Below are positions 53,407-53,833 of a stretch of 64,000 nucleotides of DNA, piece after piece. Origin of the DNA: a virus; IMG/VR virus record IMGVR_UViG_3300031088_000734; one strand, written 5' to 3'. Position 1 is the first letter of the stretch. Each line of letters begins with the position of its first letter. The notes below the pieces were generated by a model that was given only the letters and a program-made list of their open reading frames with translations, searched no databases and was not told where the DNA came from. The translations under genes and the position numbers were made by a program.

Positions 53407-53833
53407 GTTGTAAAGCAGTAAGTAATCTTGGGAAGTTGGCTTAAAAGCAGCCATCTTATAATGAGTAGAGCGGTTGCCATAGGTGTTTGGGATTTAGTGA
53501 TGGTAAGCATCGGGTTTAAATGATTTAGCGGTCATTTGAGGGTATCGGTGACAAGTGAGCCACGGTTTGTCGAAATCGAATCCACATTAAAGTAGATTTT
53601 GCAGATCAAAACGTCTCAGCCAAAAACTCCCAGTTCTTGCAATAATGTAAGAATTCGCCGTGGTTGTGGTCTTGGTAAAGTAAGGAGGCACCCCAGAAAT
53701 GGTAAGGCCGAATTCTCTTTTGGCGTAATAGCACACCATGATTATGATTGTTTTCGCAACAAAACTGCCACTAAGGCTGACCTTAGCCCTCTAAAAGCTA
53801 AAGGGAACGGTTCGACTCCGTTGTGGTGGGCCA
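53407..53833 (+). ncRNA. large structured ncRNA containing a split 23S rRNA GTPase-associated-centre (H42-H44) mimic, a 256-nt insertion and a 3' tRNA-like element
   Basis: 53431-53466 and 53723-53736 match E. coli 23S 1055-1090 and 1091-1104 (42/50 by eye against the recalled sequence) with compensatory changes; bounded by a promoter and a terminator. Confidence 0.8.
53765..53833 (+). tRNA. atypical 69-nt tRNA-like element, anticodon CUA, short D-arm
   Basis: CTGCCAC/GTGGTGG acceptor, AAGG-ctga-CCTT mini D-arm, loop CT-CTA-AA, AACGG-TTCGACT-CCGTT T-arm, G-CCA end. Confidence 0.55.

Follow-up and report, generated by a model that had tools for sequence, protein, structure and literature searches.

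RNAs that imitate the rRNA site of a ribosomal protein are known from the leaders of ribosomal-protein operons, and the mimicry of rRNA by RNA is a known principle. In 23S rRNA, helices H43 and H44 (E. coli 1051–1108) correspond to the 58-nt fragment that binds uL11 and thiostrepton, a site known as the GTPase-associated centre. We found no earlier description of a free-standing phage RNA that rebuilds this factor-docking centre of the ribosome. The locus investigated here lies in a 64,000-nt stretch of viral DNA (the window), which is part of a 179-kb IMG/VR virus record. It shares with the GTPase-associated centre an H43 with the A1067 loop, the strand equivalent to 1082–1090, an H44 hexaloop GUAAUA within the sequences flanking the segment under study, and covarying stems, with a closing helix standing in for H42. 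Whereas H44 is continuous in rRNA, the phage RNA has 256 nt plus UUUG between the equivalents of 1090 and 1091; it also differs in having an A at position 1101. The centre in rRNA is a part of the ribosome, but the phage mimic is a free-standing transcript that does not reside in one. With a probability of roughly 0.78, we regard the 256-nt segment (53,467–53,722) as a retained middle domain, a three-way junction between the U1090 and G1091 equivalents, of a stand-alone phage noncoding RNA that rebuilds H43/H44 of 23S rRNA.

The RNA is encoded by a gene-free unit on the plus strand, as are all of its features described below. The two genes that flank it have no known families, and since the search of their proteins returned no informative Pfam or PHROG family, the neighbours are uninformative. 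A sigma-70-type promoter sequence (TTGCCA-17-TATAAT, 53,372–53,400) matches the consensus at 11 of 12 positions and is conserved in the closely related contig L033. In the minimum free energy fold, a long closing stem that resembles an extended H42 pairs residues 53,407–53,431 with 53,736–53,760. A tRNA-like 3′ module with a CCA end (53,765–53,833) precedes the terminator within the same promoter-terminator unit. This module was called neither by ARAGORN nor by the Rfam tRNA model, and cultured relatives have a normal tRNA-Met or tRNA-Arg in its place. The terminator, a predicted hairpin followed by a U run at about 53,844–53,878, was missed by a simple terminator scan. The virus has one copy of the RNA in its own genome.

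The 5′ half of the mimic (53,429–53,466) contains H43 with the A1067 loop and the 1082–1090 strand and ends in GAGU. This segment matched positions 1094–1147 of the bacterial LSU rRNA model in a cmscan search (15.1 bits, E = 0.022) and is 86% identical to E. coli 23S rRNA around 1055–1090. Its H43 mimic, with a GGCUUAGAAGCAGCC-type loop followed by a UUAAAGAGU-type strand, occurs as the same block in relatives. The 3′ half (53,723–53,738), which matches E. coli 1091–1100, consists of the H44 hairpin GCGUAAUAGC and the return strand ACACC. Both the H44 hairpin of the form GC-GUAAYA-GC, with its covarying stem, and the closing helix that joins the ends are present in the window. The C1092–G1099 pair covaries, being CG in 32, UA in 4 and UG in 1 of the sequences aligned (alignment columns 64/71). 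A prediction made originally from the DNA letters alone had placed the insertion exactly between positions 1090 and 1091. The flanks agree with this placement, as the 5′ flank ends in AAUGAGU (23S 1087–1090) and the 3′ flank reads GCGUAAUAGCAC (1091–1102). Excising residues 53,467–53,722 would indeed join GAGU to GCGUAAUAGC, as in the contiguous centre. The residues equivalent to 23S 1082–1086 (53,454–53,460) read AUAAU in the window versus UUAAA in E. coli, such that U1082…A1086 is swapped to A…U. The sequence GAUAAUG is common to the window and four related contigs (L056, L073, L094 and L045), and UUUAAAG is present in most relatives. The swap resembles a covarying tertiary pair of the centre.

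BLAST searches of phage records matched the 3′ part of the insert together with H44 in Pseudomonas phages Astolliot and UNO-G1W1; in Aeromonas phage 4_4572 they matched the mimic's 5′ half. All three records leave the RNA unannotated, and in each it immediately precedes a tRNA gene that belongs to a tRNA cluster. Searches with the 5′ half also matched Ralstonia phage RSP15, Pseudomonas phage pf16, Xanthomonas phage XacN1, Paenibacillus phage Pd_22F and a Vibrio phage, and the split mimic is present in dozens of uncultured phage contigs as well. Among bacterial genomes the module was found in only two metagenome-assembled contigs, which gives no clue to the host. The insert always sits between (G/A)AG(U) and UUUGG. 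It had been suggested that homologs be inspected for variation in, or loss of, the insert, and both were observed: its size at this fixed site ranges from 0 to 322 nt, and the insert-free member (L105) lies between tRNA-Glu and tRNA-Met in a tRNA array on a 190-kb viral contig. Members of the subclass that carries the P3 module described below, recognizable by a GCACCCC…GGUAAGGC hairpin, have whole inserts of 62–322 nt, and other members of the family have different short inserts of about 40–60 nt. Pattern scans of viral contigs, metagenomes and genomes provided 37 distinct full-length members of this one subclass, which are the relatives counted in the following analysis. The RNA family is absent from Rfam 15, in which only the weak LSU match to the 5′ half of the mimic was obtained at E values up to 10, and neither a full-text search nor a survey of structured viral RNAs contained a published description of it.

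Comparison of these sequences indicates that the 256-nt segment folds as a three-way junction made up of a P1 stem, a P2 arm and a P3 hairpin. P1 consists of four base pairs between AGAG (53,467–53,470) and CUCU (53,715–53,718), located right after GAGU and right before UUUGG. This pairing of the ends was already part of the original prediction. It is fully intact in 37 of 37 relatives, which have 15 different stems, whereas shuffling the partners gave 70 ± 2% pairing (none of 2000 shuffles reached the observed value) and sliding one partner gave 49–78%. The UUUG linker that leads from P1 to H44 (53,719–53,722) is nearly as constant, with UUUGG present in 31/37 relatives and the other six differing at the first U or the first G. 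The linker between P1 and P2 (J12, CGGUU, 53,471–53,475) is CGAAG or CAAAG in most relatives. Between P2 and P3, J23 (53,665–53,681) begins with a lineage-specific linker and continues with a motif of the GGUWAAGU type that is conserved in the family according to alignment A3 (UGGUAAAGU, 53,673–53,681).

P3 is a 33-nt hairpin module (53,682–53,714) that abuts P1 without a linker. The window has its consensus, NN-RGA-NGC-ACC-CCR-loop-YGG-UAAG-GCN-GAA-NN, which hardly varies among phages infecting Pseudomonas, Aeromonas and many uncultured hosts. The two outer pairs (53,682–83/53,713–14) are formed in all 37 relatives and covary, with four pair types each. They are followed by a 3 × 3 purine loop, mostly RGA opposite GAA, and a three-pair stem GGC/GCC (53,687–89/53,707–09) in which the outer pair is GU, GC, AU or CG. 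Above an invariant internal loop ACC/UAAG, the upper stem CCA/UGG (53,693–95/53,700–02), of the family form CC-R/Y-GG, is capped by a terminal loop that is GAAA in 18 relatives, GAGA in 6 and UAAN in 13; the window has the GNRA-type loop GAAA. Overall, 99.2% of the cells of alignment A3 were paired in P3 versus 88.4% in shuffles, none of 500 of which reached the observed value, and slid controls gave 2–39%. Because invariant bases cannot covary, both the pairing of the invariant parts of P3 and a tertiary role for them are what we infer. Three other pairings of the insert ends that had been proposed, CGG 53,471/CCG 53,708, TTGCCAT 53,474/ATGGTAA 53,699 and GGTGT 53,482/GCACC 53,688, clash with this covariation-supported hairpin and are excluded as the main structure because their bases belong to P3.

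The architecture of P3 bears on the idea that the insert copies a second ribosomal element, such as the sarcin–ricin loop or the uL10 site of H42, in which case the RNA would imitate the whole factor-docking site. A hairpin with purine-rich loops and a GNRA loop that is invariant in phages of very different hosts fits this idea. However, the sarcin–ricin consensus was unmatched within 3 mismatches in the insert and the 39 collected rows, and the AGUACGAGAGGACC-type hairpin with its bulged-G motif and GAGA loop was likewise not found in the insert or the subclass relatives at up to 3 mismatches. Moreover, P3 does not have a fixed GAGA, its loop being GAAA, GAGA or UAAN, and the best local matches of the insert and of P3 to E. 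coli 23S rRNA score 16–19, the same as for unrelated sequence. A second rRNA copy is therefore improbable. One match, GGUUAAGUG near E. coli 23S 1014–1025, was at noise level and was not counted.

The original prediction had left open whether the insert is a permanently attached functional domain or an element that is excised or spliced, with its removal activating the split mimic. Among public sequencing runs, the exact DNA of 53,360–53,900 occurred in 14, which come from nine studies, and six RNA libraries contained parts of it. Some of these 14 are small runs labelled as single organisms, which suggests that cultured isolates, and not metagenomes alone, carry the element. Four RNA-library contigs from three studies, placed on 53,300–53,950, are single pieces of 330–403 nt that start at 53,421–53,425, end at 53,725, 53,754, 53,781 and 53,805, and bridge both junctions of the insert. 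None of the four contains a spliced joint, although assembled RNA contigs can drop rare spliced forms and cannot prove transcription. Within the same interval, RNA-library depth was confined to the RNA unit. These contigs are most simply explained by a stable RNA from which the domain is not removed, and the conservation and covariation of P1 and P3 in 37 relatives also support permanent attachment.

Excision, whether of a self- or protein-spliced intron or of some other element, would account for three features: precise removal restores a contiguous H44, the junctions are U| … G| as at group I splice sites, and an insert-free family member exists. Yet, beyond the unjointed contigs, no intron or ribozyme family matched 53,300–53,950 in Rfam at E values up to 10, including the group I catalytic core (P3–P9 with the guanosine-binding site). 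Group II introns, with domain V and six domains in all, likewise gave no Rfam match, and 256 nt is far too short for one. The junction U and G are part of GAGU and UUUGG, sequences retained in nearly all relatives, and the inserts of 40–322 nt have no common intron core, with P3 directly abutting P1. Together with the 0–322-nt range of sizes at the site, these observations leave excision very improbable.

One RNA-library contig, X18, has 26 bases ahead of 53,422 that correspond to 53,739–53,753, a C, and about 53,413–53,421. The 3′ strand of the closing stem is thus joined to its 5′ strand, and the two points of the join lie opposite one another in the stem; a contig of a different study terminates at 53,754. 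The X18 join hints at cleavage within the stem, RNase III-like, combined with either a circular form or template switching at RNA ends.

Thermodynamic folding did not distinguish the insert. Its minimum free energy was −65.5 kcal/mol compared with −63.1 ± 4.8 kcal/mol for shuffled sequences (z = −0.51), and the reverse strand gave z = −0.17. Because the fold is no better than shuffles, a list of helices is no evidence by itself and the test must come from relatives. A fold constrained to the helices obtained by comparison lies about 10 kcal/mol above the free minimum. Part of this cost may arise because purine-rich loops like those in P3 go unscored by nearest-neighbour energies.

P2 is a variable arm of about 190 nt (53,476–53,664) made of nested helices, as judged from collinearity with contig L045, variants among the RNA-library contigs and the constrained fold. 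From phage to phage its length (about 20 to 280 nt) and sequence differ. The sequences available for comparison were L033, which is 95% identical over the whole RNA unit and 97% over the insert, two RNA-library-contig variants, and the metagenomic contig L045, whose 289-nt insert is of the same type but diverged. L045 was the only diverged comparator, as a scan of viral contigs with a P2 motif gave only false positives. Most P2 helices rest on few events because there is one diverged relative and the two variants are near-identical. MAFFT misplaced the 5′ part of the window/L045 alignment, so helices were matched by position; they occur in L045 in the same order as in the window.

The basal helix P2a (GCCAU-A-GGUG/CGCC-GUGGU, 53,476–85/53,656–64) corresponds to GCCAU-U-GGC/GUC-GUGGU in L045. 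P2b (UUGGGA/UCCCAG, 53,487–92/53,628–33) is AGCGG/CCGCU in L045, with three positions changed on both sides. P2d (CAUCGG/UCGGUG, 53,508–13/53,545–50) is AUCGG/CCGAU there and encloses a hairpin in both sequences. In the window this is a long AU-rich hairpin (53,516–24/53,531–39), foreseen as TTAAATGAT 53,516/GTCATTTGA 53,531, for which one RNA contig variant has the double change A53523G + T53532C, replacing A-U by G-C; the same variant has two further compatible single changes in the hairpin. Another hairpin (53,593–97/53,605–09) recurs in L045. At 53,634–41/53,646–53, where TTCTTGCA 53,634 had been paired with TGTAAGAA 53,646, L045 has a different hairpin at the same place. GACAAG/TTTGTC (53,550–55/53,566–71) is a candidate hairpin with no variation among the comparators. 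With these helices, covariation in the insert among homologs, whose absence had been named as a refutation of the proposed structure, was observed in P1, P3 and several P2 helices. A hairpin AGCC/GGUU beside J23 in one subgroup was indistinguishable from an extension of P2a. The words UGAGCCAC and AAGUAGA occur both in this P2 and in other P2 arms, but in about the number expected by chance and not in collinear order, and homology was rejected.

All of the sequence elements that the original prediction listed were found where it had located them, yet the comparison did not uphold every proposed pairing. The hairpin GATG 53,499/CATC 53,508 is broken by T53501A in the RNA variant that has the double change, and P2d fits the region better. 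Two long-range helices had been thought to cross as a pseudoknot. One of them, TTGGGA 53,487/TCCCAG 53,628, is P2b and is supported by the three compensatory positions in L045. The other, AGCCACGG 53,558/CCGTGGTT 53,658, has no counterpart in L045 and clashes with GCCAUAGGUG 53,476/CGCCGUGGU 53,656, which is common to L045. Because UUGGGA/UCCCAG is nested once P2a is in place, no pseudoknot remains. Three copies of UGGUAA, at 53,501, 53,673 and 53,700, had been suggested to pair with tRNA CCA ends in the manner of T-box and RNase P RNAs. The copies are present at these positions, but they are not kept among relatives and variants: in one RNA variant T53501A alters the first, L033 has UGGUCA for the second (YGG is common at this place in relatives), and in the third the GG forms pairs within P3. 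With the motifs unconserved or already base-paired, the sequences lend no support to the proposed tRNA interaction.

The z-score of −0.51, the failure of several of the originally proposed helices against relatives and the hypervariability of P2 would all be consistent with an unstructured spacer or a chance insertion without a function of its own, in which the helices are those of any 256-nt sequence. This explanation is highly unlikely, given that P1, P3 and several P2 helices covary, that P3 is nearly invariant in phages of distant hosts, and that the insert is 97% identical between the window and L033. A small protein or tmRNA-like tag (ORF 53,599–53,859 or minus-strand ORFs) is the least probable explanation: although ORFs of 50–86 codons overlap the insert, the 86-codon frame is interrupted by a 1-nt insertion behind 53,762 in L033 and one RNA contig, a minus-strand frame is lost through a 1-nt deletion at 53,486 in another variant, ARAGORN finds no tmRNA, and conservation tracks base pairs and not codons.

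Several members of the family depart from the common layout. In L045 (440–830) and L022 (2960–3270), P1, P3 and H44 are perfectly kept and the H43 loop sequence is lost; the H43 site has a different 5-bp hairpin in L045, and L022 is without a recognizable H43. Either P3 and H44 may be maintained without the A1067 loop in these two sequences or the copies may be decaying. L031 (1160–1423, minus strand) contains a second insertion in the 3′ strand of H43, GCAGCCA-AGUGGGAUGGACUCCACU-AUACC…, as well as a short one at the H44 site. L102 (4706–5201), a scaffold assembled from a metagenome and labelled Propionibacterium sp., has only the last ~110 nt of the RNA, starting within P2, and its downstream sequence is that of a full copy in a Methylobacillus sp. 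assembly (L101, 4836–5331). As judged from the two sequences, the breakpoint is evidently a recombination or integration event inside the variable arm.

Returning to the retained three-way junction, the domain is probably both a brace and a second binding surface. P1 brings the two halves of H44 back together, and with P3 it could clamp the H43/H44 fold, which is marginally stable, when the RNA is off the ribosome. A conserved partner, either a host protein or another part of the same RNA, may recognize the invariant P3 loops as a second surface. P2 would be an extension specific to each lineage, contributing bulk, stability or one more partner. The RNA as a whole is most likely an off-ribosome imitation of the factor- and uL11-binding site, and a decoy of this site is the most economical idea for what it does. 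A more elaborate and rather unlikely version is that P3 is a docking site for a conserved host component, such as a translation factor, uL10/L7-L12, RelA or an rRNA-targeting defence enzyme. It would then form a two-part decoy with the H43/H44 mimic, in an RNA that is cut out within its closing stem, is perhaps end-joined, and persists as a very stable particle while infection proceeds.

Members of the family can accommodate a large domain at a single precise position in H44, and usually have one. Deleting or mutating P3 provides a concrete handle on what the RNA binds, and the same module is available in cultured phages (Pseudomonas phages pf16, Astolliot and UNO-G1W1 and Aeromonas phage 4_4572). 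The corrected fold is a covariation-backed starting model for probing and structural work.

Compared with other known RNAs, the phage RNA resembles GOLLD and ROOL in being phage-encoded, several hundred nucleotides long, multi-branched and, as these often are, in tRNA clusters. It matches neither of these families in Rfam, and it contains an identifiable rRNA-mimic core that is absent from both. The precise interruption of a structured RNA gene, the U before the insert, the G as its last base and the length of a few hundred nucleotides are reminiscent of the group I introns of tRNA and rRNA genes in phages and bacteria, but the segment has no match to the intron covariance models and no spliced product among the RNA contigs, and the inserts of different phages have no catalytic core in common. 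The insert is also comparable to rRNA expansion segments, with which it shares a fixed insertion point, a lineage-dependent size (here 0–322 nt), closure by a stem that keeps the core fold, and retention in the mature RNA. To our knowledge, genuine 23S rRNA is not expanded at this point of H44. The phage insert sits in a mimic and not in rRNA, and whereas expansion segments are usually without an invariant hairpin module, it carries P3.
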